Shown piece after piece: positions 3,268 to 18,700 of a DNA stretch of 35,945 bases; position 1 is the stretch's first letter, and each line of letters starts with the position of its first letter. Below the pieces are notes generated by a model. That model did not search any database and was not told the origin of the DNA. It saw only the letters and a program-made list of their open reading frames with translations. Source of the stretch: a virus; the IMG/VR virus record IMGVR_UViG_3300030330_006157, positions 1 to 35,945 of that record; one strand, written 5' to 3'. A program made the position numbers and the translations under genes.

Positions 3268-3453
3268 ATGACTAATAAAAAAATTACATTTACGACTAAA
3301 GAGGCTCTAGAATATTTAAAAGAAAATAATTTTAGCTATTCTCGAAACTCTTTACTACTTCGCAACAAAAAAATGAATGGTATTTTATGCAAAAAAGTTA
3401 CCGAAAGGAAGTTTTTATGGTATAAAGAGGAGCTAGACAAATTATTACCTTAA
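3268..3453 (+). CDS. Excisionase / AlpA / MerR-like HTH DNA-binding protein
   Basis: 61 aa. ITFTTKEALEYLKENNFSYSRNSLLLRN...KFLWYKEELDKLL fits the excisionase-family HTH pattern (T.eA.eyL..s..tl...... ...w.....l..ll). Confidence 0.45.
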   Translation: MTNKKITFTTKEALEYLKENNFSYSRNSLLLRNKKMNGILCKKVTERKFLWYKEELDKLLP

Positions 3454-3455
3454 CT

Positions 3456-3484
3456 AAAAAAGGGGGGGACTATGAACCCCCCCA
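3456..3484 (-). terminator. Rho-independent terminator (best on the minus strand; the hairpin also closes the plus-strand early block)
   Basis: G7 (3462-3468) and C7 (3477-3483) form a stem with an 8-nt loop. On the minus strand the stem is followed by T6 (plus-strand A-run 3456-3461). A second hairpin aaaatctt/aagatttt lies at about 3492-3510. Confidence 0.6.
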
Positions 3485-3713
3485 GAAAAGAAAAATCTTT
3501 TTTAAGATTTTAGGTTTAATTTACCATATACAATTATAATATTAACTAATATTAATTACAATTCAATTATGCACCTTTATTTTTAATTGGTGACACCCCC
3601 CCTCGCACCCCTTAAACACACAACCCACTTCTAGCAGCATTACATATTAGTAAAAATCAACAAGCTAGGTAACATTCAAATAACAAGCCCCTGCCCTTTC
3701 TAAATCTTACTTG
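3456..3713 (-). ncRNA. Candidate orphan non-coding transcript, about 250 nt (a possible shorter form of about 85 nt from an internal promoter)
   Basis: It is bounded by a promoter-like TTGACT-N18-TACAAT (3750..3721) and the G7/C7+T6 terminator. No ORF of 60 aa or more is present; the only ATG ORF seen is 24 aa (MLLEVGCVFKGCEGGVSPIKNKGA). Confidence 0.3.
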
Positions 3714-3720
3714 AGGCTTT

Positions 3721-3750
3721 ATTGTAATTTACAACTAACAAGCCAGTCAA
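3721..3750 (-). promoter_or_regulatory. Sigma70-like promoter on the minus strand inside the ORF-free region
   Basis: The reverse complement reads TTGACT (3750..3745), an 18-nt spacer, then TACAAT (3726..3721). Confidence 0.4.
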
Positions 3751-3754
3751 CAAT

Positions 3755-3787
3755 CAAATAACAAACAAATAACAAACAAATAACAAC
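3755..3787. repeat. Tandem 11-bp repeat CAAATAACAAA x3
   Basis: Copies at 3755-3765, 3766-3776 and 3777-3787 (the last ends in c). An AGAAGATA x2.5 repeat follows at about 3801-3820. Confidence 0.85.
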
Positions 3788-3903
3788 AACTAAAGAAATA
3801 AAGAAGATAAGAAGATAAGAATATATATATGTTGCTATTTTTTATTGGGTTTAAAATATTTTTTCAAACCTGATTTTTTAAATAGGTACATTTTCGCTAA
3901 TAA

Positions 3904-3932
3904 CAAAAACTATCAAAAACTATCAAAAACTG
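3904..3932. repeat. Tandem 10-bp repeat CAAAAACTAT x3 (phased A5 tracts)
   Basis: Copies at 3904-3913, 3914-3923 and 3924-3932. Confidence 0.85.
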
Positions 3933-3963
3933 GTTAGCGTCAAATTAATTGTTGATAAATAAA

Positions 3964-3997
3964 AAAGGTAATTACCTTTTTCGATAGGGTAATTACC
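3964..3997. promoter_or_regulatory. Two copies of the palindrome GGTAATTACC, 21 bp apart (operator-like)
   Basis: A perfect 16-bp palindrome aaaggtaattaccttt at 3964-3979. A 10-bp core ggtaattacc at 3988-3997. A third half-site ttacctt lies near 4013-4019. Confidence 0.55.
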
Positions 3998-4149
3998 TTT
4001 TTTATTTTCCTATTACCTTGTTTTTTAAAAGTCTACATCATAACTAGAGATAATACATCATTTTTAAAAACTTCTTAGAGCCAGTCTAGTAAACACTATA
4101 GATCGTTTATCATTGCTAGCAACAATAAATCATAACTAGCTATAATAAA

Positions 4150-4354
4150 CTATGCCAAACTATTCCAAAACTGCACCAAAACTGCACCAAAACTGCACCA
4201 CCTACTCTGTAAAAACTCTGTGGAAACTCTGTAAAAACTATTAGCAAACCCTTGTAATTAAAGGGTTTAGACTTCTAAGACTCTGTAAAAACTCTGTGGA
4301 AACTCTGCACCAAAACTGCACCAAAACTGCACCAAACTATGCCAAAACTATGCC
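4150..4354. repeat. Mirror-ordered iteron array: three families of about 11-bp direct repeats flanking a central hairpin
   Basis: A = CTATGCCAAA(A): 4150, 4160 (variant), 4337, 4348. B = CTGCACCAAAA: 4171, 4182, 4193, 4305, 4316, 4327. C = ACTCTGT(AAAA/GGAA): 4204, 4215, 4226, 4280, 4291, 4302 (fused to B). The order is AABBBCCC-core-CC(C)BBBAA, all in one orientation. The core hairpin aaaccctt/aagggttt is at 4246-4268. Confidence 0.9.
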
Positions 4355-4357
4355 GCC

Positions 4358-4399
4358 TGTGTTATACTTGGTATAAGTGCGTATACTCAGTATAACACA
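4358..4399. promoter_or_regulatory. 42-bp imperfect inverted repeat containing two TATAC-N3-GTATA palindromes
   Basis: tgtgttatacttggtata-agtgcg-tatactcagtataacaca has 18-bp arms with 2 mismatches. The sub-palindromes are ttatac-ttg-gtataa (4362-4376) and tatac-tca-gtata (4382-4394). Confidence 0.7.
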
Positions 4400-4426
4400 T
4401 TAACATTAACTTTTTTCACTTTTTAA

Positions 4427-4455
4427 TTGACTTGAAACTTTTTTGTTATTAAGAT
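4427..4455 (+). promoter_or_regulatory. Sigma70-like promoter upstream of the recombinase gene
   Basis: TTGACT (4427-4432), 17-bp spacer, TAAGAT (4450-4455). Confidence 0.4.
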
Positions 4456-4460
4456 AGTTT

Positions 4461-4489
4461 TTGTTCCGCTTCTGATAATAGCAGAACAA
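4461..4489. promoter_or_regulatory. Candidate tyrosine-recombinase core site (11-7-11 inverted arms)
   Basis: ttgttccgctt-ctgataa-tagcagaacaa; the arms match at 9 of 11 positions. The arm sequences recur in swapped, inverted order at 4560-4566 (attctgc) and 4586-4594 (aagcggaac). Confidence 0.4.
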
Positions 4490-4615
4490 CTATAAAACTA
4501 CTTAAAGCTTTACTAGTAGTGCCTTAAAGCTGTATTTAGGTAATAATATTAATAAATCTATTCTGCTTTTTTAAGAATATAAAGAAAGCGGAACTACTAA
4601 AAACAATTATAAATT

Positions 4616-5215
4616 ATGACTTTTACACCCTGGAATAAAGGAAAATGCGTTGGACAAAAAACAAAATTTACTAAAAGACAAGTAAGTTCGTTGAAAGATA
4701 TACTTAAAAATAAAAATAAGCAATTTGATTTAGTTTTATTTTCTCTTGGAGTTGATACAATGTTGCGAGCTTCAGATTTATTAAATTTAAAAGTAAGCGA
4801 TGTAATGGCTTATGATAGAACAATAAAAAATATATTTGATTTGAAACAACAAAAAACTAAAATGAATCACAAGGTTCAACTATCCGACTCTACTATTCAT
4901 GAACTAATAATATATACTCATAATAAAAACCCTCAAGAATATTTATTTAAGTCTTCAAGAAAAGATGCACCTATCACGAGAGAATATTACGCAAAAAAAG
5001 TAAAATCATGGTGCGAGTTGTTGGGATTAGATCCAAAAAATTATTCTACACACTCTTTGCGACGAACTAGAGCAAGTTATATATACGAATCAACAAGAGA
5101 TCCAGAATTAGTACGTCAACTGTTAGGTCAAAAACATATTACTGCCACATCAGCTTATTTAAGTATAGATAAAAATCGGGCAATTGAGTTAGGCTCAAAC
5201 TTTATGATGGATTAA
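4616..5215 (+). CDS. Short tyrosine recombinase (catalytic domain only; FimB/FimE-sized)
   Basis: 199 aa. Motifs seen are DTMLRASDLLNLKVSDV (first Arg box), HSLRRTRASYIY (HxxR) and LLGQKHITATSAYL (His...Tyr). Only about 45 aa precede the first Arg, so there is no room for an arm-binding domain. Confidence 0.8.
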   Translation: MTFTPWNKGKCVGQKTKFTKRQVSSLKDILKNKNKQFDLVLFSLGVDTMLRASDLLNLKVSDVMAYDRTIKNIFDLKQQKTKMNHKVQLSDSTIHELIIYTHNKNPQEYLFKSSRKDAPITREYYAKKVKSWCELLGLDPKNYSTHSLRRTRASYIYESTRDPELVRQLLGQKHITATSAYLSIDKNRAIELGSNFMMD

Positions 5216-5231
5216 GAGTCAATCTGGAACC

Positions 5232-5294
5232 GAAAAGGCAAGCCTTGACCTGCCTTTTCTAGCCCGCACGGGCTAATCTATTTTTAGTTTTTTT
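5232..5294. terminator. Terminator hairpins between convergent genes
   Basis: gaaaaggca/tgccttttc (5232-5240 and 5251-5259), then tagccc-gcac-gggcta (5260-5275) followed by a T-rich run (atctatttttagttttttt). A nested inverted repeat ttagtgtta...ttatcaa...ttgataa...taacactaa lies further on, before the stop of the minus-strand gene. Confidence 0.6.
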
Positions 5295-5368
5295 GTTTAT
5301 TTAACTTAGTGTTAGTAACTATTATCAAATAAAGCAATTGATAATTTAACACTAATACACTACAAATG

Positions 5369-5989
5369 TCAATGAATTTTTTTTAATTGATCTGCTTTTA
5401 AGTGCAGAACATCAACTTTATAGTACTTTTGAATAATCTCTAAAGCTTTAATTATATTCTTTTTTAAGGTTAATCGATGACTCTTTGTTAATTGATTAAT
5501 TTTATTTAATGAAAATTCTGATTCTAGGACATAACTAATTAATTTTTCATAATTACATTTTTGAGTAGATAACATCCTTAACATCTTTTTTATTTGCAGT
5601 ATATTGCTTGATGCTCTTAATTGCTTGGTTGAAAGAGACTTTTCGTGTCGCTTACCGCCCTTTTCGTTGATACTTGAGCCGTCCATAATAACTTTGCTAG
5701 AGAAAGGATCCCGGTGCATTAACTCATAATCGAGTTGGTAACGCTGGCCCGCTGCATACAGACCTAGATCTATGTCATCCTTAGCATAATATCTTTGTAG
5801 GGGTGATTGTATTACATATGAAATTTGGTTGTTCTTCATTAAGACTGGCTTAACCGATAAGCCTAATTTTTTTAATTGTTCGATCTGCTTAAGGTTATGA
5901 TTGGCGAGCAATGCTGCATTTAACTTACCTTCCAAAATTTTATTTGACTCTTTCAATATTTCGTAGGATGTTGCTGGTTTTTTCGTCAT
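5369..5989 (-). CDS. Hypothetical protein, second gene of the leftward switch operon
   Basis: 206-aa ORF with an ATGA start/stop overlap to the upstream gene. The segment SPLQRYYAKDDIDLGLYAAGQRYQLDYE loosely recalls a family I remember, without certainty, as DUF6456 from alphaproteobacteria. Confidence 0.55.
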   Translation of the reverse strand: MTKKPATSYEILKESNKILEGKLNAALLANHNLKQIEQLKKLGLSVKPVLMKNNQISYVIQSPLQRYYAKDDIDLGLYAAGQRYQLDYELMHRDPFSSKVIMDGSSINEKGGKRHEKSLSTKQLRASSNILQIKKMLRMLSTQKCNYEKLISYVLESEFSLNKINQLTKSHRLTLKKNIIKALEIIQKYYKVDVLHLKADQLKKIH

Positions 5990-6285
5990 AAGCGCAGAGT
6001 TATGTTGATATCAGAATGGTTTTTTTTGATGAATTCTAAAATTTCACGTGCCAAGTCAAGGCTGATGCCGCTTTTATGTGAATAGGCATTATTAAATGAA
6101 TTAGTGTCACGCCCCATCGCTCGAGCTAATTTCGCAATATATATCTTAACTTTGTCGTGATCGGCACGCAAATATTTATTAAAATTACTATCTTCAACGT
6201 AGTCTTTTACATATCCAGCTTCAATAATTAATTGTTCTAGCTTTTTTCTTTTCCCTCCTCTAACCCTTTCCATTGCTACTTTCAT
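5986..6285 (-). CDS. Small HTH-like DNA-binding protein (repressor candidate)
   Basis: 99 aa, first gene downstream of the leftward promoter of the switch. It has a helix-rich basic segment IYIAKLARAMGRDTNSFNNAYSHKSGISLDLAREILEFI. Confidence 0.5.
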   Translation of the reverse strand: MKVAMERVRGGKRKKLEQLIIEAGYVKDYVEDSNFNKYLRADHDKVKIYIAKLARAMGRDTNSFNNAYSHKSGISLDLAREILEFIKKNHSDINITLRL

Positions 6286-6314
6286 AAGCTCTATAAAAAA
6301 TATTAAAAAAGTTG

Positions 6315-6342
6315 TTGACTTAGTATTTATCAGTAGTATACT
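6315..6342 (+). promoter_or_regulatory. Rightward sigma70-type promoter of the switch
   Basis: TTGACT (6315-6320), 16-bp spacer, TATACT (6337-6342). Confidence 0.6.
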
Positions 6343-6351
6343 TTATACTAA

Positions 6352-6387
6352 TTACATATTTGCATACATAATTATGCATTTATGTAA
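6352..6387. promoter_or_regulatory. Palindromic operator made of two inverted 16-bp U boxes
   Basis: ttacatatttgcatac (6352-6367), ataa, ttatgcatttatgtaa (6372-6387). It fills the interval between the two facing -10 elements. Confidence 0.6.
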
Positions 6388-6390
6388 TTA

Positions 6391-6418
6391 ATTATATCAA
6401 CAATTAAATATTTATCAA
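6391..6418 (-). promoter_or_regulatory. Leftward sigma70-type promoter of the switch
   Basis: The reverse complement reads TTGATA (6418..6413), a 16-bp spacer, then TATAAT (6396..6391). Confidence 0.6.
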
Positions 6419-6434
6419 CTAAAATAAAAAGTCT

Positions 6435-6797
6435 ATGAAAAATATTGAAAATATTATTCCAAATGATGCTGGAGATCTGGCTCATTATACAGAAAATTTA
6501 GCAAAGAATATAGTTGCAATCCATAAGCAAAATCTTCCTTATATTGACACCCACAAATCTTGCAATGAAGCTTACTATAAGCTGGAGGAAAAAATAAAAA
6601 AAGAATGCGAAGAGATTGCTTTTACTGAACTTGATGATGATGGAGAATTAACAGTTGTCCCCTCTGATTATCATTTCGAATGTGAATACGATGAATACTC
6701 GCAAGGAAGAATTAAAGACTTAGCCAAAGAAAAAGCTTACGAAGCTTTTGATTTTATTGAGAGTTTTGCAAGAGTGTCGAAAAAGTATTATTTATAG
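6435..6797 (+). CDS. Hypothetical acidic protein, first gene of the rightward operon
   Basis: 120-aa ORF. It is followed by a 15-bp-stem inverted repeat at 6798-6841. Confidence 0.55.
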   Translation: MKNIENIIPNDAGDLAHYTENLAKNIVAIHKQNLPYIDTHKSCNEAYYKLEEKIKKECEEIAFTELDDDGELTVVPSDYHFECEYDEYSQGRIKDLAKEKAYEAFDFIESFARVSKKYYL

Positions 6798-6952
6798 CTT
6801 AAGAACTTTGAAAAGCCGTCAAGAAATTCAAAGCTCTTAAGTTAAGAAATGTAAAAAAATCAGAGGCAATTGGAGGTGACTCTGAAATTTAGTATAAAAT
6901 CAACAAATTATTAACTACTTCCTAAAGAAATTAATAACTTAATCGCAATATT

Positions 6953-7102
6953 ATGAAAAAAATTATAAATAGTCAAGCTTATTTTTTATTTAAATTATTG
7001 GAACTGGATCAATTTACTACAAAAGAAATAGTTGAGCAAAGTATTGCAGCCACTTTAACTGCCCTGCTCTTTGTTACCATTTTTGTAACTATAATCATTT
7101 AA
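6953..7102 (+). CDS. Small protein with a hydrophobic C-terminal segment (49 aa; below the track cutoff)
   Basis: Translation is MKKIINSQAYFLFKLLELDQFTTKEIVEQSIAATLTALLFVTIFVTIII. Confidence 0.3.
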   Translation: MKKIINSQAYFLFKLLELDQFTTKEIVEQSIAATLTALLFVTIFVTIII

Positions 7103-7119
7103 TTTTTTTTTGAAGCCAG

Positions 7120-7148
7120 TTGACTTTTAAAAAATAATAATATAAATT
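7120..7148 (+). promoter_or_regulatory. Sigma70-like promoter
   Basis: TTGACT (7120-7125) followed after 15-17 bp by tataaatt. Confidence 0.4.
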
Positions 7149-7164
7149 CAAGAACCATAAAACT

Positions 7165-7437
7165 ATGACAAATGAAAAAATGCTAGAACTAGAAAAGATT
7201 TTTACCAACGATAACAACTCTGAGTCGCAAGAGTTGGGTGATTATTTATCCAAAAAACTAAAAACAGACCAAGCCGAGGCTAATGCTCGTTGGAATGTAA
7301 TTGTTAATCGAGATTTCAGTGATCATGAATTAGTAAGATTGCTAAGAACATCAATTAGAAATAAAGGGGTGGATTGTGTGGTTGATTCCATAGAACTTGC
7401 ATGTTTGTCAGAAAAACTAAAAATTGAAGATTTTTAA
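7165..7437 (+). CDS. Hypothetical protein
   Basis: 90-aa ORF with the AAAACTATGAC start context. Confidence 0.55.
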   Translation: MTNEKMLELEKIFTNDNNSESQELGDYLSKKLKTDQAEANARWNVIVNRDFSDHELVRLLRTSIRNKGVDCVVDSIELACLSEKLKIEDF

Positions 7438-7463
7438 TTAATAATTAAAAAAAAGGGGGTGTT

Positions 7464-8225
7464 ATGGCTGATTATTGGGCGGTAATAAATAAAGGAATGT
7501 TTTATGATCCGAGGTTTCGTGACCTACCCCCCTACATTACTATGCTTTATCAGTTTTTACTTTTTGGCTTAAAAGATATTACTCCTGGTGGTATCGTAAA
7601 TATTCATTCTGGAGGAATGGAAATGCCGATTTCCAAGGAGGCTAATTTTCATCATGACGATGGTTGGCAACAGTTTCGAAAAGATATTCCAGAAGCAAAA
7701 GATCTTAATTTTTCTAATTTAGGTTCAAGAGTTTATCCTTTTGTAGAAGTGTTAGAATTAAGGGGTTTGATTGAATATGACAAACCACACCACCTTTTGA
7801 GAATTGTTGATTTTCACAGACATTGTAAATTTAATTCAGGATTTGGTGGTGATAGTATATTAGCTGATCTTAATAAAAAAATGAAAGATTTTGGACATCA
7901 TGAATTTTTTACTAAATATTTACAGGAAAACAAGGAAGAATTAACACCTATCTTGGAATGGTCAAGGGAGCGGTTTGCAAAAAAGGTTGCTTTAGACTCA
8001 CAACGAGAATGTTATCAAACTAAAGAAGAGAAAGAAAGTAAAGAATATAAAATATTAATGGAAGCTTTTAATTCGGTTAGGAACGCTAAAAATCCTGATA
8101 AAGAAGCTTTAGAAGTTTGCTGTATTTTAGATTCTTTAAATTCGCCAAAAACGACTCCGACATCTTGCAAATTATTAAAATTGCGAGATTCGGTGCAAAA
8201 GCAAGGTAGTATTGGCTCTAGATAA
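7464..8225 (+). CDS. Hypothetical protein, possibly replisome-organiser-like at the N-terminus
   Basis: 253 aa. YWAVINKGMFYDPRFRDLPPYITMLYQFLLFGLKDITPGGIV resembles the W..l....f.D..f..L......lY..Ll pattern of phage replisome organiser N-termini. Confidence 0.4.
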   Translation: MADYWAVINKGMFYDPRFRDLPPYITMLYQFLLFGLKDITPGGIVNIHSGGMEMPISKEANFHHDDGWQQFRKDIPEAKDLNFSNLGSRVYPFVEVLELRGLIEYDKPHHLLRIVDFHRHCKFNSGFGGDSILADLNKKMKDFGHHEFFTKYLQENKEELTPILEWSRERFAKKVALDSQRECYQTKEEKESKEYKILMEAFNSVRNAKNPDKEALEVCCILDSLNSPKTTPTSCKLLKLRDSVQKQGSIGSR

Positions 8226-8257
8226 TTTTTAACTATTTTTTGAACCATAGTAGATAT

Positions 8258-8296
8258 AGATTAAGAGAGAGATATAGATTAAGATAAAGATTAAGA
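8258..8296. repeat. Three copies of AGATTAAGA (spacing 18 and 12 bp)
   Basis: Copies at 8258-8266, 8276-8284 and 8288-8296, with GATATAGA also duplicated. They lie upstream of the replication genes. Confidence 0.75.
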
Positions 8297-8638
8297 TAAA
8301 AATAATGATAGAATTTAAAATTTGGATTTTGGAATCGTTGACAAATAATATTTCAATGATTTTGTTTTTGTTAGTTTCAATAGTTCTCATTTGGATTATT
8401 GCTAAATCGATGTAATTACCTATTATATTGTGTAAAAAATTGTTGCATTTTGAACATTTTAATGTCAAAATTGCAATTATTAATTTATTTTTATTTTAGT
8501 TGAATTAAGATTCATGCTAATATTAATAAATTATTTTTTATGTTATTTGTTATAACGTTGGCGTTATTGGCGGCTCTTCTGATTTTGATTTTGTTTTAGA
8601 AAGTCACCATGTATATTATGTAAACTAATATTGGAGAT

Positions 8639-9094
8639 ATGTTTCATAAAATTTTAAGCTTGAAAAAAGATTTTTTTTGTAGTATCGTACTAGATACCAT
8701 GAAAAAACCTAATTACACTCACACTATTGATCCATTGAAAGTGCCTTGCCCCGTGTGCAACTCTCCCTATGAGATCAACTTTAATTCAATTTCTAATGAC
8801 TGGATATCTCTAGAATCCTTACAAGAAATTGATGACAAAATTGATTTAGCAATTTTAAACTTAAAGAAAGAGCGCTTAAAGGTTCGATTTGCTCATATTT
8901 TAAGAACTTCACCTAATGCCCATGCCCTAACCGCTTATATACTGGCTTTTGATTTTAGTGGTATCAAATTTGAGCAAGGACGCATAGTTTACTATTACGA
9001 TGATACTTTCCCTATTAAACTTTTAAAAACTACTTTTAAGCATCTCAGAATCCATTTAAAACATAAAAAATTTGCTGGAGGTTGTAATGAGTAA
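8639..9094 (+). CDS. Hypothetical protein (the true start may be the internal ATG at 8699)
   Basis: 151-aa ORF with a single CPVC motif. Its stop overlaps the next gene's start (ATGAGTAA). Confidence 0.5.
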   Translation: MFHKILSLKKDFFCSIVLDTMKKPNYTHTIDPLKVPCPVCNSPYEINFNSISNDWISLESLQEIDDKIDLAILNLKKERLKVRFAHILRTSPNAHALTAYILAFDFSGIKFEQGRIVYYYDDTFPIKLLKTTFKHLRIHLKHKKFAGGCNE

Positions 9095-10160
9095 TATTTT
9101 AAATTTACTTTCCTTTGATGGATTTATTTCTGTCAACAAAACCTTGATTCGTAAACTAGGACTAGAAGAAGCTTGTGTTGTTGGTTTTTTAGCAACCATG
9201 CACGAATATCATGCTAGTAAAGATTTTGATGGCTGGTTCTATGTAAAATATGATCTCACCGACCAAGATGAAGATGTTGATAAGAATCGCAGAAACACGG
9301 CAAAATATCAATTAGGAATGAGTAAAGACAAGTTTATCAAAATTACAAAAAAACTTGAAAAAATAAATATAATTTTTACAAAAAAGAAGGGTGTCCCAGC
9401 ATTAAAGTTTTACAAGTTTGATGCTGATGTTATTTGTCAATTATTACTTGATGAAAATGCTATCAAGTCAGTAAATAAAGGTACTCATTCAGCTTTCGCA
9501 AAACACGAAAGCTTGCTTTCGCAAAACACAACATCAAGCTGTAGGAAAACACGAATGCTATATAAAGAGAAAATAAATAAAAAAGAAAGTATCTCTCTTC
9601 TGGCAAATATTTCTCCTCAAGATGTAACTTTAGATTTGATAAAAAAAGAAGCTAAGAGAAGAGAAAAGGATATTAAAAGTTTTATTAAAGATGAGTTAGG
9701 AAAAAAAATATCTGGTAATGAGTACAAAGAGCTATTTGAAAATTTTTGTAACAATTACTGGGAATGGATTCAGCGAAAAGAAATTAAATCATATACTGCT
9801 ACTTTTGAGAAATTTATATCTGAGGAAAATAGCTACAAAAGTAATGAGCCTGTTCAGCAAGGTTTCGTGTCGCCAAAGTCAAAAAAACCCCCTCCTCCAC
9901 TTTTAAGTTTAGGATTGCCCGACACAAGCACGGATTTTATTAAAGACTCTCAAGAGTGGCAAAACTTACTTAAAGAAAAGTTTGATGAAGATGTCTACGA
10001 TAAGTGGATTAAGTGCCTAATACCTCATCGCAAAGAAGGAGAGAAAGTAATTTTTTCTGTAGAAACAAAATTTGTAAGAGATTGGGTTATTCGTCAATAT
10101 CAAACAAAAATACAGGAATTTTTAGGTTTTGATATAGTAATTCTTTCCACTGAACCATGA
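9087..10160 (+). CDS. Replication initiation/organiser protein with a DnaA domain I-like C-terminus
   Basis: The N-terminus LNLLSFDGFISVNKTLIRKLGLEEACVVGFLATMHEY looks like a winged-helix replication protein. The C-terminus WQNLLKEKFDEDVYDKWIKCLIPHRKEGEKVIFSVETKFVRDWVIRQYQTKIQEFL parallels the E. coli DnaA N-terminal pattern W..L.......f..WI..L......l.l.....F..DWV...Y...I. I take the ATG at 9087 as the start rather than the TTG at 9072. Confidence 0.55.
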   Translation: MSNILNLLSFDGFISVNKTLIRKLGLEEACVVGFLATMHEYHASKDFDGWFYVKYDLTDQDEDVDKNRRNTAKYQLGMSKDKFIKITKKLEKINIIFTKKKGVPALKFYKFDADVICQLLLDENAIKSVNKGTHSAFAKHESLLSQNTTSSCRKTRMLYKEKINKKESISLLANISPQDVTLDLIKKEAKRREKDIKSFIKDELGKKISGNEYKELFENFCNNYWEWIQRKEIKSYTATFEKFISEENSYKSNEPVQQGFVSPKSKKPPPPLLSLGLPDTSTDFIKDSQEWQNLLKEKFDEDVYDKWIKCLIPHRKEGEKVIFSVETKFVRDWVIRQYQTKIQEFLGFDIVILSTEP

Positions 10161-10243
10161 AAATGTCATACACCCTCCACTTTCAGCCCAGCCTCACCAC
10201 GCCACCTAAAACACGCATTAAAAACCAACATCACTTGCTCTTA

Positions 10244-10284
10244 GCGGATCGCTTGACTTTAATGACTTTTTTTAAGCGATCCGC
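10244..10284. promoter_or_regulatory. 11-bp-arm inverted repeat with a 19-nt loop
   Basis: gcggatcgctt (10244-10254) and aagcgatccgc (10274-10284). There is no adjacent T-run, so it is more likely a binding site or RNA structure than a terminator. Confidence 0.4.
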
Positions 10285-10296
10285 CAAAAATAAGTG

Positions 10297-10324
10297 TTGA
10301 CTTATACCGATTAAGTATTATTAT
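10297..10324 (+). promoter_or_regulatory. Sigma70-type promoter of the partition operon
   Basis: TTGACT (10297-10302), 16-bp spacer, TATTAT (10319-10324). A TTATACTA box and a U box lie downstream. Confidence 0.5.
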
Positions 10325-10355
10325 CTTTACTAACCAATAGTATTTATACTACTAA

Positions 10356-10371
10356 TTACATAAATACATAA
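10356..10371. promoter_or_regulatory. U-box operator, forward orientation
   Basis: ttacataaatacataa, preceded by tatactactaa and followed by ataaataa. Confidence 0.5.
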
Positions 10372-10388
10372 ATAAATAATTTTATATT

Positions 10389-10610
10389 ATGCCTAAACCA
10401 GAAGCGCCTTCGATCCTTAGAGATTTAACTTATAAATTCTCTACCGTACTTGAACCTGACGAGAAAACTACTAAAACAATTAGATTGTCTACTGAAAACG
10501 ATAAATATTTAGATGATCTTGAAATTAAATATAGACTTGGTAAAGGTGCAATACTACACGCTGTCTTTGAATTGGGAAAAAAAGCTTTAAACTCAAGTTT
10601 AAATAATTAA
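10389..10610 (+). CDS. Small ribbon-helix-helix-like protein, first gene of the par operon
   Basis: 73 aa. KTIRLSTENDKYLDDLEIKY...GKGAILHAVFELGKKAL fits a strand-helix-helix layout. Confidence 0.35.
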   Translation: MPKPEAPSILRDLTYKFSTVLEPDEKTTKTIRLSTENDKYLDDLEIKYRLGKGAILHAVFELGKKALNSSLNN

Positions 10611-10616
10611 TTTATC

Positions 10617-11249
10617 ATGGCACATATTATCTCTATTATTGGTCAAAAAGGAGGTATTGGAAAAACTACTATAGCTTGGAATCTATTTATTACCCTACTT
10701 TCTCAAGGATACAAAGTTAAATTGGTTGATTGTGATAATAATCAATTTTCTACTTATGAAATCGCTCAAATTAGAAAAAATAAATTAGGTGGGGATTTGG
10801 TTGATGTTGAGTGCATGCCTGCCAATGAAGCTAGATACGTTTTAAGAGAATGTGATAAAAGTTATGATGTAATTATTTTTGAGTGTGGGGGTAGAATAGA
10901 TGATGAATTAAAAATGGCAATTTCTTATGGAGATAAAATTATTATGCCACTTAAACCATCTATTTTGGAAATTCAAACTATTAAGAATGTCGAAAAGGTA
11001 ATTGATAGGATTCCTAATTTTAATGCTGATTGCAAGATATTGCCCAATATGGTTTCCACGCATCATTTAAATAACGATCTTGATCAAATGAAAAATTTAA
11101 ATCCAAGATATTTCAAGTTTATGAAATCATTCATTTCTCATAGATCTATATATTCTTCTTCACTAACCTTTGGGCGTTCAATTTTTGAAATGTCTCCCTT
11201 AGACAATAAAGCGAATAATGAATTTAATAATTTCCTGTTGGAATTATAA
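10617..11249 (+). CDS. parA: ParA/Soj-family partition ATPase (small, type Ib-like)
   Basis: 210 aa. The N-terminus IISIIGQKGGIGKTTIAWNL carries the deviant Walker A motif KGGxGKT. There is no N-terminal HTH extension. Confidence 0.85.
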   Translation: MAHIISIIGQKGGIGKTTIAWNLFITLLSQGYKVKLVDCDNNQFSTYEIAQIRKNKLGGDLVDVECMPANEARYVLRECDKSYDVIIFECGGRIDDELKMAISYGDKIIMPLKPSILEIQTIKNVEKVIDRIPNFNADCKILPNMVSTHHLNNDLDQMKNLNPRYFKFMKSFISHRSIYSSSLTFGRSIFEMSPLDNKANNEFNNFLLEL

Positions 11250-11264
11250 TTAAAAATAAAAAAA

Positions 11265-11558
11265 ATGATAGACAACAAAAATAAATTTGCAGATATTGAT
11301 TTATCTAAAAAGCTAGACCAAAAAGAAAAATATTATGAATCTTTCTCCCCTGCCCATGTTAAAGTAAGAGATAAACAAGTTACGTTTTTACTTGATCCTG
11401 ACGTGCATTATGAAATGACTCAAGTTATTGCCTATAAAAGAAGGTTTGAAGGTGAGAACCTTACCCAAGCAAAGTTTATTACTGATCTGTTAGTAAAGAA
11501 CCTTAAACGTACATATCCAATTGCCAAAAAAGCATTCGATTCTGATCGCAAAAAATAA
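11265..11558 (+). CDS. ParG-like ribbon-helix-helix centromere-binding protein candidate
   Basis: 97 aa, immediately after parA. KQVTFLLDPDVHYEMTQVIAYKRR...LTQAKFITDLLVKNLKR fits an RHH layout. Confidence 0.4.
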   Translation: MIDNKNKFADIDLSKKLDQKEKYYESFSPAHVKVRDKQVTFLLDPDVHYEMTQVIAYKRRFEGENLTQAKFITDLLVKNLKRTYPIAKKAFDSDRKK

Positions 11559-11609: not shown

Positions 11610-11625
11610 TTATGTATTTATGTAA
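11610..11625. promoter_or_regulatory. U-box operator, reverse orientation
   Basis: ttatgtatttatgtaa is the exact reverse complement of the U box at 10356-10371. The flanks ttatactaa and ataaataa are the same as at that site. Confidence 0.5.
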
Positions 11626-11696: not shown

Positions 11697-12479
11697 ATGA
11701 GTATGGAAATTCAAAAAATTAATCAAGAAAAAAAATCAGTTATTAGTTCGTTGGCATCTAAATATGAAATGGAACCGGCAGCGTTTCAGGCTGTCATTAA
11801 AGAAACCGTTATGCCTGGAAATGTTAAGAATGAAGAAATGGCTTCTTTCCTTCTTGTTGCAAAAGAATATGATCTTAATCCTCTTACCAAAGAAATATAT
11901 GCTTTTTCAGGTCGAGGAAAAGTTACTCCCATTGTTTCCGTTGATGGTTGGGCTAAAATAATTAATAACCACCCCCAACTCGATGGAATTGAATTTGTTG
12001 ATAATAATAATGATTCTGATTTAATTTCTGTTGAGTGCAAAATATACCGAAAGGATCGTAAAATGCCTGTATGCGCCACCGAATATATGGCAGAATGCAA
12101 AGGCTCTAGTGAGCCATGGAAAAAGTGGCCAAGAAGAATGTTGAGACATAAAGCTTTAATTCAAGCTGCTCGTTATGCTTTTTCGTTTAGTGGTATTTAT
12201 GATGTTGATGAGGCTGAGCGCATCAAAGATGTCACCCCCCTCACCCCTGTACATAATCCTGAAAAAGTAGCGCTAGTTAGCGAAGCGATAGAACATATTG
12301 AGCAAGCTCCTTCTGTTGTGGGAAGTTTAAAAATTAGAATTAACAATTCTAGCAGCATAGATGAGCTTGAGTCAATTGGTGATGAAATAAAATCTTATGA
12401 ACTGAATAAGATTGATCGAGAGGAAATTAGTATTTGCTATAAAGAAAAAATTAATCAATTTAAAAACCATGAACAATAA
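11697..12479 (+). CDS. Bet/RecT-family single-strand annealing protein
   Basis: 260 aa. LNPLTKEIYAF...VSVDGWAKII...WKKWPRRMLRHKALIQAARYAFSFSGIYDVDEAE matches the Bet/RecT signature as I recall it. Confidence 0.75.
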   Translation: MSMEIQKINQEKKSVISSLASKYEMEPAAFQAVIKETVMPGNVKNEEMASFLLVAKEYDLNPLTKEIYAFSGRGKVTPIVSVDGWAKIINNHPQLDGIEFVDNNNDSDLISVECKIYRKDRKMPVCATEYMAECKGSSEPWKKWPRRMLRHKALIQAARYAFSFSGIYDVDEAERIKDVTPLTPVHNPEKVALVSEAIEHIEQAPSVVGSLKIRINNSSSIDELESIGDEIKSYELNKIDREEISICYKEKINQFKNHEQ

Positions 12480-12747
12480 TGTTATCGAGCTTTACCCTTA
12501 CACGCTTCATAATTATGAATCTAGTCTTAACGACATAGAGGATGAATTGCATAATTTAAAATCCGAACTTCGGCGTATTAAAAAAATTGTAAGGAAAAAA
12601 GATGATATTATTAATCAATTACAACAAAACAATAATTCATTAGAACTGATTTATAATCAACTTGAGCCAATTTGCTCAGCAATGTCTGAAGTTTTGACGA
12701 GTGAGCAACTGGATCAAGTAAATAATATATTACAAGAAAATGACTAA
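12469..12747 (+). CDS. Small coiled-coil protein
   Basis: The ATG at 12469 (MNNNVIELYPY...) overlaps the end of the Bet gene. The track's TTG start at 12412 seems less likely. Confidence 0.45.
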   Translation: MNNNVIELYPYTLHNYESSLNDIEDELHNLKSELRRIKKIVRKKDDIINQLQQNNNSLELIYNQLEPICSAMSEVLTSEQLDQVNNILQEND

Positions 12748-13879
12748 AATTAAACAGAGGTCTCAAGAGTGGCTTGATATTAAGCAAAATTACATTGGAG
12801 GTTCAGAAATTTATGGCTTAGCGCATCACTACTGTCCTCAAGAGCTTGAAAATATAGGTATTAATATTTTTAAAGAAAAACCTTTTTGCACGGCTCAAGA
12901 ACTATTTTTAAAAATCAAATATGATTGCAAGGTAGAAGTATCAGCTGCAAATCACATTTTGGCCTTTGGGGCACAAATGGAAGATTTTGTAGTCAGAAGG
13001 TTGCGTGGCGTAGTAAACGACTATGATATTTATAAAAAAGAATCAGAGCAAGTTAAGATCGAAGGGTCTGATGATTTTATAATTAATGAAAAGTTACACC
13101 CCCTCGCCTGTTGTTCACCAGACGGCTATATTGTTATGCCTAAAGATCGTCAGCTCCAAGTTGCAAATAGCGACTTGAAAGTTGATCACTCTTGGGGTAC
13201 TGGAGTTTTGGAACTAAAAACCGCACCATATCAAAAATTGCACGAACTTGTTGATGACAACGTAGGACCTTCTCCAAAATATATCTTACAAAATCAATAT
13301 CAAATGGCAGTATTGAATAAAAAGTGGGGAATAATAGCTGTCTTAGTTCCAAAAAATTCTACCGTAACGATAAATCTTGGGGAGAATCAAAAATATGAAT
13401 TTAATTCTGATGATGAATTTATTAAAGGTAGAATGCTGGCGGCTATGATGAATGATGAAACAGAATATTTAAGTGAGATTTATGACTTAATTTACTTTGT
13501 ACACCCTTTGTATGAACAATATCAAAATATTATTAACAAAGCCCTTAGGCTTTTTCAAGAAGATTTGGATAATAATATTTGCCCCAATGTTCTGTACGAT
13601 AATGCGGCCTATGAAAGATATAAGAAAATGTTATCTCAGGTCAAGCCAGAGCAATACGGCTGTAAAGAGTTATCACAAACCGATGAACTTGATATTTTAA
13701 TTAATGAGCGTCAAGACACGACTAAAGAAATTACAAGACAACAAAATTTACGAAATGAAAGCGACAGAAAAATCGATAATTTAACCAGAAGATATTATAA
13801 CGAGGTAATTGGCACTAAATATCGCTTAAAATATATTAAAAATGGTCAGCTAAGATTTTACGAAAGAAAAAATGTATGA
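12740..13879 (+). CDS. YqaJ/lambda-Exo-like recombination exonuclease (PD-(D/E)XK)
   Basis: 379 aa. The N-terminus QRSQEWLDIKQNYIGGSEI and the motifs CCSPDGYIV...GVLELKT are present. The C-terminal extension is long. Confidence 0.7.
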   Translation: MTKIKQRSQEWLDIKQNYIGGSEIYGLAHHYCPQELENIGINIFKEKPFCTAQELFLKIKYDCKVEVSAANHILAFGAQMEDFVVRRLRGVVNDYDIYKKESEQVKIEGSDDFIINEKLHPLACCSPDGYIVMPKDRQLQVANSDLKVDHSWGTGVLELKTAPYQKLHELVDDNVGPSPKYILQNQYQMAVLNKKWGIIAVLVPKNSTVTINLGENQKYEFNSDDEFIKGRMLAAMMNDETEYLSEIYDLIYFVHPLYEQYQNIINKALRLFQEDLDNNICPNVLYDNAAYERYKKMLSQVKPEQYGCKELSQTDELDILINERQDTTKEITRQQNLRNESDRKIDNLTRRYYNEVIGTKYRLKYIKNGQLRFYERKNV

Positions 13880-14337
13880 TTAAAAACTTAATTTCAGTAA
13901 AAGATATTACAGCTTTAAAAAAGAAAGACAATCTGACTGGTGATGAATTGCAGTTGTTGCAGCAAGAGGGCTTTAAAGAACAGCAGTTACAAATAAATTG
14001 TAAAACGATATTTGACGGTTTTGCTTTGAAGCATGGCCATGCTCAATACTATTTCCAGCAAAATGACAATGGTGGCTATAGTAATATTGCATCAAAAAAA
14101 ATGAAAGCAGCGCAAGGTACAATATCAGGCTGGCCTGATGTAACATTATGGAAGTTTGGCAAGAATTGCGAAAAATCAATTTTTATTGAGTTTAAGAGAC
14201 CTAAAGAGACAAAGATAAGTAAATCCCAAGAACTTATCCATAAACAGTTTTCTGATGCTGGAAAAGAAGTTTATTTGTGTAATAATACGGTATATTTTGA
14301 GAAAGTAATCTGTAAAGAATTTTTTGACTTAAAATAA
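13876..14337 (+). CDS. VRR-NUC domain nuclease
   Basis: 153 aa. GWPDVTLWKFGKNCEKSIFIEFKRPKETKISKSQELIHKQFSDAGKEV fits G.PD...(n)..E.K....s..Q. Confidence 0.65.
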   Translation: MIKNLISVKDITALKKKDNLTGDELQLLQQEGFKEQQLQINCKTIFDGFALKHGHAQYYFQQNDNGGYSNIASKKMKAAQGTISGWPDVTLWKFGKNCEKSIFIEFKRPKETKISKSQELIHKQFSDAGKEVYLCNNTVYFEKVICKEFFDLK

Positions 14338-15718: not shown

Positions 15719-18700
15719 TTAATAAATAGAATTGGAGTTTGCAGGTTGCATATTATAAGAACCAGTAACGCTCAACGGACTCTTGAAGGTATTACCCGCA
15801 AAGTAGTTATAATCACCGTTTACAGTAATGCCAGAGTTAAACAAAGTGGTAGTATTGCATAAAAACTTACTCCTGTCACCGTTGCCGCTGATAGTATCAT
15901 CAATAATTGAATTACTGATAATATTGTCATCACCGTTGAAAGTCAAAGTTGAAGAGCCAAAGCAAGTCTCTACCCTATTTTTATCGCCCGATAGGCTAAC
16001 AGAGCCACTAAAAGTACAGTTTCTAAAGGTTCTTTGGCTAATGGTAGTAAAATTTTGTACCGTAGAAGCAAAAGTACAATTTTCGTAAACTGTATTTGGA
16101 ATTATAACAGATATCGAAGTGGTGTTGCTAAATTCGCAATTATTAAATTTCCAACCAGTCCAGCTTGGAGAGCCAGAAGAGTTATAATTTACTGAATCAA
16201 TAGTTGTACAATTGTTGACTGTAACATTGGTGCCACCAGTCGCTTGAACTATCTTACCAGTACCAAAATTAATATTATCTAGATTAGATTCATCATAATA
16301 CAAATAAAGTTCTAATTTTCCAGACGTGCTATTGGTTTGATTTGACGGTTTATCAAAATTACTTAAGTTTCCGCCCGCTACTATCGCATAGGCATCGCTT
16401 GAGGTAATATTTGACAATGCCCAGTTGATTTTCTTAATTTCCACCATTGGAAAATTACTTGGATCGCCAAAGACAACTGCCGAACCTAATAACACATCGG
16501 ATTCAATATTATTTTTCGTAAATTCACCAGAAATTTCTAAAGCATCGATAATCAGCTCATCGCCTAACTCAATGGCTTTAGCACAACTTGACCCACCCCC
16601 ATTAATGACAGTTTGGCCCTGTGCTAATGAAGGGGCGTTAATAGTGTTAAGATTCCAAGATAGACCGTTACCAGAGTAGTTTGGTAGTAGAGCTTTTACA
16701 TTTCTCGAAATAAAGACGCCCGTTGGTGAAAATTTTCCGTAATCATTTGCGGTCATTTGAGTAGTATCCCAAACTATACCATCTAATATAGTTTGGTTAG
16801 TTTCGGTACCGAAAGCAGAAGATCTACCTAAAAATTCAGCTTGAGTCGGAGTGGTAGGAATTTGCATTTTTACAGTTCCCGACCAAATACCGTTACCAGC
16901 TTCAATCACTAGATCGTTGCTGGTCGATTGCATGAATCTTTTTGGTTGCCACTCGCCTACGACTTTAATATAAACATCGCTTGTTACTTCAGTTTGACCA
17001 GACGAGACAATGTCATTTGATTCGACTACCGCAGCGCTAGTACCATCAACAAATATATATTGCTCTCCCGCTTGCACGGCAGCGTAAACCGTCGAATAGT
17101 CGCCACCAGTGGTTCTTACTATTTTATAAGGTAATGCAGTTCCACCACCGCCACCAGACTCTACCTGCCAAGTACCATTGCCAGAAGCATCGGTTTTTAA
17201 AACATAGCCAGCTACGGCAGTTGTTCCAAGTTGAAAATTAGTAGTTTGAATATCCGTTGCTGACAACGTTGGTATAGTTACCGTGCCAGTAAAGGTTGGC
17301 GAGGCAGTGTTAGCTTTTGAAGCAATGGAACTAGTGTTACTGTTGATTTGAGTTTGAATATTCGAAGTCACTCCATTCAAATAATCAAATTCAGTGTTAG
17401 AAATGATACCAGAGCTTATTTTGGTTGCCTCAATACCTGCTGCTGCTTTAATTTCATTATTATCAATATTACTGATTGTGTTGCTGTCGGCATCAATTGT
17501 TTTGTTTGTTAAAGTGTCAGTAGAGCTTGCGGATATCTTAGTTCCAATAGCAGTAGTATTAGAAGCAATATCCGTAGTATTAGTGTTAGTTTGACTTATT
17601 GCGCTGGAAATGGCCGAGGTGGTAATACCACCGTCTTGAATGATTTTACCAGTAGTGCCATCAAAACTAGCAATATTAGTATCAGTAGAACTTGAAGGCC
17701 CTGTTACATCACCAGAGCCAGTACTTAAAGTGACTGGTTGATATTCAGAAGATGCTGAATTATATTGCAAAACTTGATTATTGGTTGGAGCTGTAGATGA
17801 AACATCAGTCAAACTGCTTGTAGCAAGGTTGGCAATAGCAGAAGTATTGGTAGCTATATCACTTGTGTTAGCAGCAATGTTAGTAGTATTGCTAGCAATA
17901 TTGCTAGTGTTAGTTGAGACTTGTGCAAGAGTGTTTTGTGTCGCTGTATCTAAACCAACTGTTATTGAGCCACTATTGGTAACTGGTCCGCCGCTTGAAG
18001 TAATGCCAGTACCAGCAGTTACGTCAACTGAAGTTACCGTTCCTGTTCCCAAGCTTAGTGTTACAGGTTCGTATTTTGAAGTTGTAGTGCTGTACTCTAG
18101 AACTTGACCACCCGCTGGCAAAGTCGCTGACACATCGCTAAGATCTCTAGTGTCAAGACTTAAGTTTGATACAGCAGTATCTGCATAAGCAGTGGTTGCT
18201 AGCTTAGTTGAGTTATCCCCTGCCCCTTGTGTCGGAGCGGTAGGGTTGCCAGTTAATGCAGGTGATGCAATATCAGCCTTTGTTGAAATAGCGGTAGTGT
18301 TGCTTGTAATATTTGCAGTGTTAGTAGATATATTGCTAGTGTTAGTGGCTATATCAGCAGCATTGCTCACAATATCAGTAGTATTGGTTGCAACTTGAGC
18401 TAAACTTGCTTGCGTTGAAGCATCAAGACCAACTGTAATTGAGCCATTGGTAGTTACTGGTCCACCAGAAGAAGCAATACCAGTTCCAGCAGTAACATCT
18501 ACCGAAGTAACCGTTCCAGTCCCACCAGCGGTCGTATCAACATAATCTTTGACAGCAGCAGAAGTTGGAATAGTTGTATCGTTATCATTATTGCCAATAC
18601 CTTCACTTTCTATTACAATTGCACTTGCTTTAAAATTATCCACTTCTACATTACTAAGAGTGTTGCTATCTACATCAATTGTTTTGTTAGTCAGAGTATC

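Follow-up and report, generated by a model that had tools for sequence, protein, structure and literature searches.

A complete phage genome that carries plasmid-type genes

The stretch of DNA analysed here, referred to throughout as the window, comprises the 35,945 nucleotides of IMG/VR virus record IMGVR_UViG_3300030330_006157 and encodes a podovirus-like phage with a tyrosine recombinase of only 199 amino acids (aa) and a ParA-type partition (par) operon. An initial annotation had taken this combination to suggest a phage-plasmid or a dual lysogeny strategy, and all of the open reading frames (ORFs) named in it are present where it placed them. The first and last 99 bases of the window are identical (1–99 and 35847–35945) and the large terminase gene crosses the join; the window is, therefore, a complete, circularly assembled genome of ~35.85 kb, and in this one genome a virion and packaging gene set lies alongside plasmid-type partition and replication genes. 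The leading explanation, to which we give an even chance on the evidence of sequence, is that the phage is a plasmid prophage whose recombinase serves as a dimer resolvase, as Cre does in P1.

Genes for a small terminase of Sf6 type, the large terminase, the portal, the capsid and tail/fibre proteins are found together on the minus-strand arm. Library scans of the window proteins found no sheath, tube or tape-measure match in this arm, as expected from the podoviral organisation proposed initially, and the label podovirus-like is a reasonable one. The Sf6-type small terminase indicates headful packaging. The portal has as its sole cultured-phage relatives phages that infect Brucella, Rhizobium, Ruegeria, Bradyrhizobium and Myxococcus (Mx8), with 23–30% identity, several of which we take to be podoviruses; no nucleotide-level match was obtained when 25 kb of sequence were compared by megablast with 50,697 phage records. 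Proteins identical to the ParA, recombinase and capsid of the window were found in Tara Oceans assemblies, including the 0.1–0.22 µm fraction. The identical genes lie on about a dozen contigs, none of which exceeds 50 kb; all are at most 36 kb and collinear through the probable recombinase site (site I, below), and the window is matched with 100% identity by two contigs, each from a different run. L-numbers designate the loci compared: L006, L007, L009 and L010 are strain variants, of which L007 is window-like, L035 is a sister lineage, and L002 and L202–L204 are near-identical window-type assemblies.

The recombinase consists of a catalytic domain only

The recombinase gene and the elements associated with it are the following.

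4427–4455, plus strand: promoter-like TTGACT-17-TAAGAT reading toward the recombinase gene, invariant in all variants
4461–4489: site I, probable crossover site, TTGTTCCGCTT/CTGATAA/TAGCAGAACAA (11-7-11), recognised from the family-wide palindrome layout
4558–4596: site II, a second inverted half-site pair (4560–4594), 17 bp apart, beside the start codon, recognised by half-site match
4616–5215, plus strand: 199-aa tyrosine recombinase, catalytic domain only (Pfam Phage_integrase, PHROG phrog_216)

The protein matches Pfam Phage_integrase over aa 18–187 of 199 (E = 8.6e-22) and the PHROG integrase family phrog_216 (E = 2.5e-36). Because the Phage_integrase match fills these residues, there is no room for a core-binding or an arm-binding domain, and the short, arm-less enzyme of the initial annotation is borne out. 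Residues R51, H146, R149 and Y181 are invariant, K80 lies inside a conserved KQQKTK motif, and most members have Gln in place of the second His/Trp. The catalytic residues are held in common with Cre, XerC/D and lambda Int, whereas the core-binding N-terminal domain of those enzymes is absent. A search of 5.8 billion proteins recovered 253 homologues with a conserved PWNKGK-GQK N-terminus and the catalytic Arg, His-x-x-Arg and Tyr. Because nearly all of them are 197–220 aa long and share this N-terminus, the window protein is not a truncated one. The recombinase is under strong purifying selection, with a ratio of nonsynonymous to synonymous substitution (dN/dS) of 0.05–0.08 between strain variants (0.03 for the portal), from which it is predicted to be functional.

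The family is rare on viral contigs (six loci in IMG/VR) and common in bacterial genomes (>600 matches), where many homologues are found on Mb-scale chromosomal contigs. Homologues are also carried by 967 PLSDB plasmid records (E ≤ 1e-10), with a full-length identity of ~36%, and the recombinase cassette is common to plasmids, mobile islands and a few phages. On the 20-kb record Ssp-JY41 the homologue lies near RepA, ParA and a toxin-antitoxin pair, and on the distant viral contig L196 the short recombinase co-occurs with a ParA of the window lineage. Also among the best matches in phage records are phiCD38-2 and phiSemix9P1 of C. difficile, prophages that are documented as extrachromosomal and carry parA (PMC6127314). 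The integrated Streptococcus prophage Javan565 carries its homologue in mid-genome, at the end of the early region, as a second recombinase; a separate 362-aa integrase, distinct from it, is located at the prophage end. The FimB/FimE invertases resemble the window enzyme in that they are ~200 aa long and consist of the catalytic domain only; inversion, however, needs two inverted sites and the window has one core site. The NCBIfam tyrosine-type DNA invertase model gives the recombinase 24 bits against a cut-off of 221 bits.

Two observations on other members of the family may be recorded here. Locus L029 (PP438431.1, 'Synechococcus phage Ssp-JY41'), deposited as a phage, has a plasmid-type backbone in the part inspected, consisting of a RepA-like initiator, ParA, a YoeB toxin module and the short recombinase. 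A large AAA_13/SMC_N ATPase gene adjoins the short recombinase at two cellular loci of unrelated context (L013:10660–13314 and L192:9538–12171), and restriction-modification genes lie nearby in L013; the recombinase cassette may travel with defence cargo.

A family-wide palindrome marks the probable crossover site

Site I is positioned 155 bp upstream of the recombinase start codon, inside the last stretch of a 1.16-kb non-coding region and outside the repeat arrays of that region. A palindrome of the form ...GCTT-N7/8-AAGC... (11-7/8-11) occurs 111–203 bp upstream of seven distant homologues (33–48% identity), so that the layout is family-wide. The upstream sequences of these loci (35 kb) contain seven such palindromes and the remainder of the loci (1,273 kb) contains 12, a ~21-fold enrichment that is optimistic because the motif was derived from the loci on which it was counted; the distance and the spacer length, both constant, were observed independently of this. 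The clearest recurrence of the whole layout is in L116, which has an equivalent core and a proximal inverted pair (18-bp gap). A wider proximal pair (50-bp gap) is seen in L115, and one proximal half-site each in L014 and L029.

Within the window genome, exact GTTCYGCTT occurs only at 4463 (plus strand) and 4586 (minus strand). The block from 4440 to 4615 is the most conserved stretch across all strain variants, and site I is identical in about ten assemblies, none of which is recombined there. IMG/VR exact searches with each half of site I plus its flank retrieved nothing. The initial annotation had placed an excisionase (Xis)-like gene and the recombinase on either side of a repeat region. 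The recombinase does flank that region, but it is likely that the enzyme's site is 4461–4489, in the last 155 bp, and not the 11-bp repeat arrays. Site II is possibly an accessory or autoregulatory site. Because site I lies just downstream of the TTGACT-17-TAAGAT promoter, it is likely that the recombinase represses its own synthesis. With a single core site, the enzyme would be unable to invert or delete DNA within a monomer; its substrates would have to be two copies of the genome, or the phage and a separate DNA molecule.

Two other candidates were set aside. The 42-bp palindrome at 4358–4399 had been taken as the crossover site on the ground that it is inverted in L009 and that a deletion in L010 ends in it, and was demoted once the family-conserved GCTT-N7-AAGC was found at 4461–4489. 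An invertible promoter segment bounded by a 13-bp inverted repeat (3902/4453) and served by a FimB-like enzyme was dropped, as the family-typical site lies elsewhere; the repeat has one orientation in every spanning contig (L002, L202–L204 and L007). At L137, a locus from a bacterial metagenome-assembled genome, the short recombinase gene lies between two palindromic sites (~9875–9910 and 10640–10670) whose spacers are reverse complements, so that the segment carrying the gene may be invertible.

The partition operon is conserved throughout the lineage

The operon consists of three genes.

10389–10610, plus strand: 73-aa ribbon-helix-helix (RHH)-like protein, first gene of the operon, candidate repressor, position kept in every relative
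10617–11249, plus strand: ParA, ParF-like type Ib partition ATPase of 210 aa (phrog_164, ParF alignment)
11265–11558, plus strand: 97-aa candidate centromere-binding protein, ParG-like, with an N-terminal IDNKNKF tail and a C-terminal RHH-like domain

ParA has the deviant Walker A motif GQKGGIGKT at residues 9–17 and no N-terminal helix-turn-helix (HTH) domain. It matches phrog_164 (E = 2e-29) and, over its full length, the NCBIfam ParA_partition model with 111 bits, which is under the 180-bit cut-off. Its best solved relative is ParF of plasmid TP228 (4dzz), a protein of the same size that aligns over the full length with E = 9e-19. The 210-aa deviant-Walker-A ParA described initially is thus confirmed, and degeneracy of ParA was not seen among relatives, K11, K16, D38 and D40 being invariant in 25 homologues.

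The three-gene layout (small ORF, ParA, ORF of ~100–130 aa) is present in every relative recovered (L001, L016–L019, L032 and L034–L036), with ParA identities from 60% down to 33%. A metagenome scan with ParA, in which generic ParAs dominate, gave at least five close relatives among the matches listed. L001 and L034 (ParA 60%) keep the par operon, but neither of them has a recombinase within 10 kb upstream of ParA. Because these two retain par without an upstream recombinase, par appears to be the constant, maintenance-type module and the recombinase cassette the variable one. In L001 (978–2609) a ParB_N-N6_N4 DNA methylase fusion occupies that arm instead.

The initial annotation had also assigned the small partner proteins to the RHH class. 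Both genes are present, and the fold label is plausible from matches that are all sub-threshold. The 73-aa and 97-aa window proteins had no library match for RHH; the L016 homologue matches Omega_Repress (1.5e-4), ParG (0.01) and RHH below threshold, and the four best PDB matches of the 97-aa family profile are three CopG/E73-type RHH proteins and ParG (E = 0.1–0.7). The members of this family have in common an IDNKNKF-type N-terminal tail and a C-terminal strand-helix-helix pattern, as ParG of TP228 has a tail and an RHH C-terminus. An exhaustive HMMER search with the 97-aa protein gave one distant relative, and its single-sequence AlphaFold model, with a beta-alpha-alpha C-terminus, is poor (predicted local distance difference test score, pLDDT, 53), too poor to search with. 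The window operon differs from ParF/ParG/parH of TP228 in having an extra RHH-like gene upstream of ParA and in being phage-borne rather than plasmid-borne.

Early regulators, operators and replication genes

The region between the recombinase and par, and the flanks of par, contain the following features.

5369–6285, minus strand: two leftward genes (206 aa and 99 aa), with homologues in L001, L034 and L035
6352–6387: palindromic operator, two copies of TTACATAWWTRCAT, at the divergent early promoter, from motif search
8250–8310, plus strand: AGATTAAGA-type short repeats upstream of the replication genes, with analogous repeats upstream of rep in L034 and L035
8639–10160, plus strand: two overlapping replication-region genes, from library scans
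10356–10369, plus strand: single 14-bp operator half-site in the par promoter region (TTGACT at 10297), from motif search
11612–11625, minus strand: inverted 14-bp operator half-site just downstream of the par operon, from motif search

Neither of the two leftward proteins had a library match. The 99-aa protein matched PDB XRE regulators at E = 0.25, and this weak XRE/Cro-CI likeness makes it a candidate immunity regulator. The 14-bp sequence TTACATAWWTRCAT occurs in exactly four copies, which form the palindrome at the early promoter and the single inverted copies that bracket par. L035 has a different 11-bp repeat (ACAATAT) at the same three places, with arrays on both par flanks. The 14-bp set could be a dispersed operator and centromere set or, equally, the regulon of a repressor that includes par.

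The second replication gene (9072–10160) encodes a C-terminal DnaA_N domain (E = 4e-11), in line with the host-dependent initiator annotated originally, and no polymerase was found among the ORFs scanned, as had also been noted. From this domain, the product would be an initiator that relies on host replication enzymes, and the AGATTAAGA-type repeats are candidate origin iterons.

The 1.16-kb non-coding region and the 61-aa protein

Between the 61-aa protein gene and the recombinase gene lie the following elements.

3268–3453, plus strand: 61-aa winged-helix protein of Xis/MerR/BldC-like fold (AlphaFold), last gene of the leftward early block
3462–3483, minus strand: G+C-rich hairpin terminator for leftward transcripts, from sequence
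3597–3895: conserved non-coding block, AACAAACAAAT x3.5 at 3749–3786 plus an AT-rich stretch, from strain comparison
3896–4108: variable insert with a perfect 20-bp hairpin (3957–4007), present in the window and L007, absent from L006, L009 and L010
4149–4358, plus strand: two arrays of ~9 and ~7 direct 11-bp repeats (~16 in total), from repeat search
4358–4399: 42-bp quasi-palindrome (18+6+18), possible operator, from repeat search

The region (3454–4615, 1162 bp) is rich in phased repeats, as the initial annotation had it, and contains no plausible ORF. None of the long upstream regions of other recombinase-family members is similar to it, and in Rfam there was no match at gathering thresholds, relaxed thresholds adding only hairpins at chance level. 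The block at 3597–3895, which has no ORF and no Rfam match, is 93–95% identical in L006, L009 and L010, where the synonymous divergence of neighbouring genes is 0.19–0.37. The 11-bp repeats fall into three classes (CTATGCC, CTGCACC and CTCTGTR), each followed by an A-tract, and are in mirror order around a hairpin at 4243–4268. Their copy number varies: L006 has one more on each side, L009 has lost nearly all and L010 all of them. L009 and L010, which have the same recombinase protein, keep it intact despite the loss of the arrays. The arrays are possibly architectural or accessory protein-binding sites, and the 42-bp quasi-palindrome is possibly an operator.

The 61-aa protein had been described as an Xis-like HTH protein. 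The gene and a winged-helix model stand, and the family assignment does not: no Pfam, PHROG or NCBIfam match was found, there are only six close homologues (dN/dS 0.10–0.18), and the AlphaFold model (pLDDT 87.7, beta-alpha-alpha-beta-beta-alpha topology) was matched by Foldseek to Tn916 Xis (template-modelling score, TM, 0.58/0.60), BldC (0.56–0.62), RdfS (0.49) and MerR N-domains, all with E > 0.1. With E values of this size, the likeness extends to the fold and does not place the protein in a family. Proteins of the Xis and BldC types multimerise head to tail on direct repeats, and our leading guess, from the model, would be that the 61-aa protein binds the 11-bp arrays.

Several further observations concern this region. 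A leftward small RNA ending at the 3462–3483 terminator was considered and rejected, as it folds no better than shuffled sequence (z = -0.1). At 3570–3596 the window retains the stump of a lost 166-aa ORF, of which the start ATGCACCTTTATTTTTAA remains; the ORF is kept in L006 (8219–8719) and L009. In L006 and L007 the recombinase gene is directly preceded by an additional ORF for an acidic 148-aa protein. L009 (5614–5655) has the inner part of the quasi-palindrome in inverted orientation, which could be explained by template switching, and a 498-bp deletion in L010 ends inside the spacer (~310–335).

Plasmid maintenance and its alternatives

We propose that the phage, with headful packaging and a lambdoid/P22-like gene order, would lysogenise as a low-copy circular plasmid. 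The DnaA N-terminal-like initiator would recruit the host replication machinery, and the ParF/ParG-type operon (small RHH protein, ParA ATPase and tailed RHH adaptor) would segregate the copies. The 199-aa recombinase would act on its own 11-7-11 palindrome, 4461–4489, turning replicon dimers into monomers, and would probably shut down its own promoter, just past which that site lies. Dimers are resolved in this way by Cre/loxP in P1 and by single-recombinase Xer/dif systems of chromosomes. The Xis-fold protein and the phased 11-bp arrays might be accessory DNA-shaping elements or have a separate function. The Cre-like dimer resolvase envisaged in the initial annotation fits the 967 PLSDB records, the plasmid prophages, the adjacent palindrome and the searches, in which no tRNA-type attP or integrated copy was found, and is the leading explanation.

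A number of observations weigh against plasmid maintenance. The contigs of known size fraction come from virus-size fractions, in which unintegrated DNA would be expected in any case. The cellular recombinase homologues adjoin ParA in none of 84 loci, the window ParA has no PLSDB match at E ≤ 1e-10, and the motif that defines site I was derived and counted on the same loci, as stated above. No centromere was identified; the par operon has no more than a single 14-bp half-site on either side, and the large arrays at 4149–4358 are 6 kb from it. A half-site of the early-promoter operator is present in the par promoter and again in the promoter that lies just past the operon, and a lysogeny repressor that bound this operator would, therefore, shut off par in lysogens. 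A conserved Xis-fold protein adjoins the recombinase cassette. Finally, in L035 a stand-alone Arm-DNA-bind_3 ORF (145 aa, E = 5.7e-24) ends 2 nt before the recombinase (L035:189–1255).

The last two points also speak for an integrating temperate phage, an explanation that we consider unlikely, though it is the strongest of the alternatives. The cassette would then be attP plus integrase, with the 61-aa protein as an excisionase on the phased repeats and a chromosomal target other than a tRNA gene, and ParA would have another role or be a leftover. The Xis-fold gene, the non-coding site region, the recombinase gene, the leftward regulators and the divergent early promoter follow the classical order of lambdoid integration/immunity regions, and the fold of the 61-aa protein is that of Xis, RdfS and BldC. 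An Arm-DNA-bind_3 partner is typical of integrases, and the L035 pair looks like a split integrase without a core-binding domain. The L035 recombinase allele is 45% identical to that of the window and the neighbouring gene 88% identical; such swapping of alleles between sister lineages would be expected upon a change of integration specificity. The many homologues on Mb-scale chromosomal contigs are consistent with integration as well.

Other results argue against it. ARAGORN detected no tRNA gene in the window, and neither a T-loop pattern search nor Rfam detected a tRNA fragment that could resemble an attB. The search of bacterial genomes proposed in the initial annotation found no relative in 185,579 GTDB species genomes. 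No integrated copy or attL/attR junction was found, and about ten metagenome assemblies that cover site I are collinear through it. These negative results are weak because the contigs of known size fraction are all virus-size and the host may be missing from genome collections. In addition, the window recombinase has neither an arm-binding nor a core-binding domain, ParA is intact and conserved throughout the lineage, and the arrays are dispensable in L009 and L010, both of which retain the recombinase. In 60 cellular loci no tRNA gene was directly beside the homologue, the nearest being ~1.6 kb away.

A different possibility, which we regard as improbable, is that there is no stable lysogeny. 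ParA and its partners would position or regulate replicating phage DNA, and the recombinase would cyclise or monomerise terminally redundant or concatemeric genomes. Library scans recognised no CI-type repressor, the weak XRE-like match being the only candidate; par shares an operator with early lytic promoters; identical genomes recur in virus-size fractions of distant stations; and headful packaging, RecT and an exonuclease are all in keeping with this possibility, as is the position of the Javan565 homologue at the end of the early region, second to an integrase. The divergent regulator genes beside the recombinase, however, resemble an immunity region, and ParF/ParG-type operons are, to our knowledge, known only as segregation devices of low-copy replicons. 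A dual strategy, in which the phage can persist in either state, partitioned plasmid or integrated prophage, and the recombinase both resolves dimers and switches between the two states, accords with both modules being intact and under selection but requires all that plasmid maintenance and integration each require, and is very unlikely given that no integrated form was seen in our searches.

Comparison with known systems

Phage P1 resembles the phage proposed here in being temperate, in packaging by the headful and in combining a Walker-type partition operon with a tyrosine recombinase whose site is a simple palindrome, and the logic proposed for the window, of partition together with dimer resolution, is that of P1. 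P1 is, however, a ~94-kb myovirus, and its ParA is a large type Ia protein that works with an HTH ParB, whereas the window has a small ParF-type ParA with RHH-like partners. Cre (343 aa) has an N-terminal DNA-clamping domain, unlike the 199-aa catalytic domain of the window, and no sequence relationship between P1 and the window is detectable beyond the superfamily level. Sodalis phage phiSG1, which we take to be a podovirus-like extrachromosomal element, gave the only ParA match among the 50,697 phage records; the match is very distant (27% identity), the host is an insect symbiont, and no recombinase relationship was found. Phages phiCD38-2 and phiSemix9P1 are extrachromosomal in lysogens, carry parA (PMC6127314) and have the short (~200-aa) recombinase homologue, but they are siphoviruses of Firmicutes with 32–34% recombinase identity and no synteny with the window.

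The occurrence of partition genes and a tyrosine recombinase in one phage is, therefore, already known from P1 and the C. difficile plasmid prophages. The points of interest here are the marine podovirus background and a recombinase that is unusually minimal and has a recognisable site. Podoviruses are few among the known phage-plasmids (PMC7969092). If the plasmid reading is true, an abundant lineage of uncultured marine podoviruses would join them, and plasmid-type lysogeny in bacteria of the oligotrophic ocean would be missed by surveys for integrated prophages. The recombinase cassette, with its catalytic-domain-only enzyme of ~200 aa, its 11-7-11 site near -150 and, closer to the gene, one half-site or a pair of them, is compact, and testing it would be easy.

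Host and other features of the genome

The initial annotation had suggested a low-GC marine alphaproteobacterial host. The marine origin holds, given the Tara Oceans assemblies, and an alphaproteobacterial host is only hinted at by the portal relatives, most of which infect Alphaproteobacteria. The fullest version of the plasmid proposal, that this is a cosmopolitan open-ocean podovirus lineage living as a ParF/ParG-partitioned plasmid in a low-GC streamlined alphaproteobacterium such as SAR11, with dimers resolved by the minimal recombinase at its adjacent site, is in our judgement doubtful as a whole. We know of no plasmids reported for SAR11.

One further module lies beyond par.

11697–14337, plus strand: recombination module of RecT, YqaJ-type exonuclease and VRR-NUC, which comes after par in all relatives

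The early genes at 1310, 2038, 2372 and 7160 share the start context AAACTATG, with no Shine-Dalgarno sequence upstream. The fibre gene (15719–20569; 1616 aa) contains several internal repeats of ~200-bp segments with 66–77% nucleotide identity, and its product is 65–85% identical to the fibres of L001 and L034, although these relatives are otherwise far more divergent.

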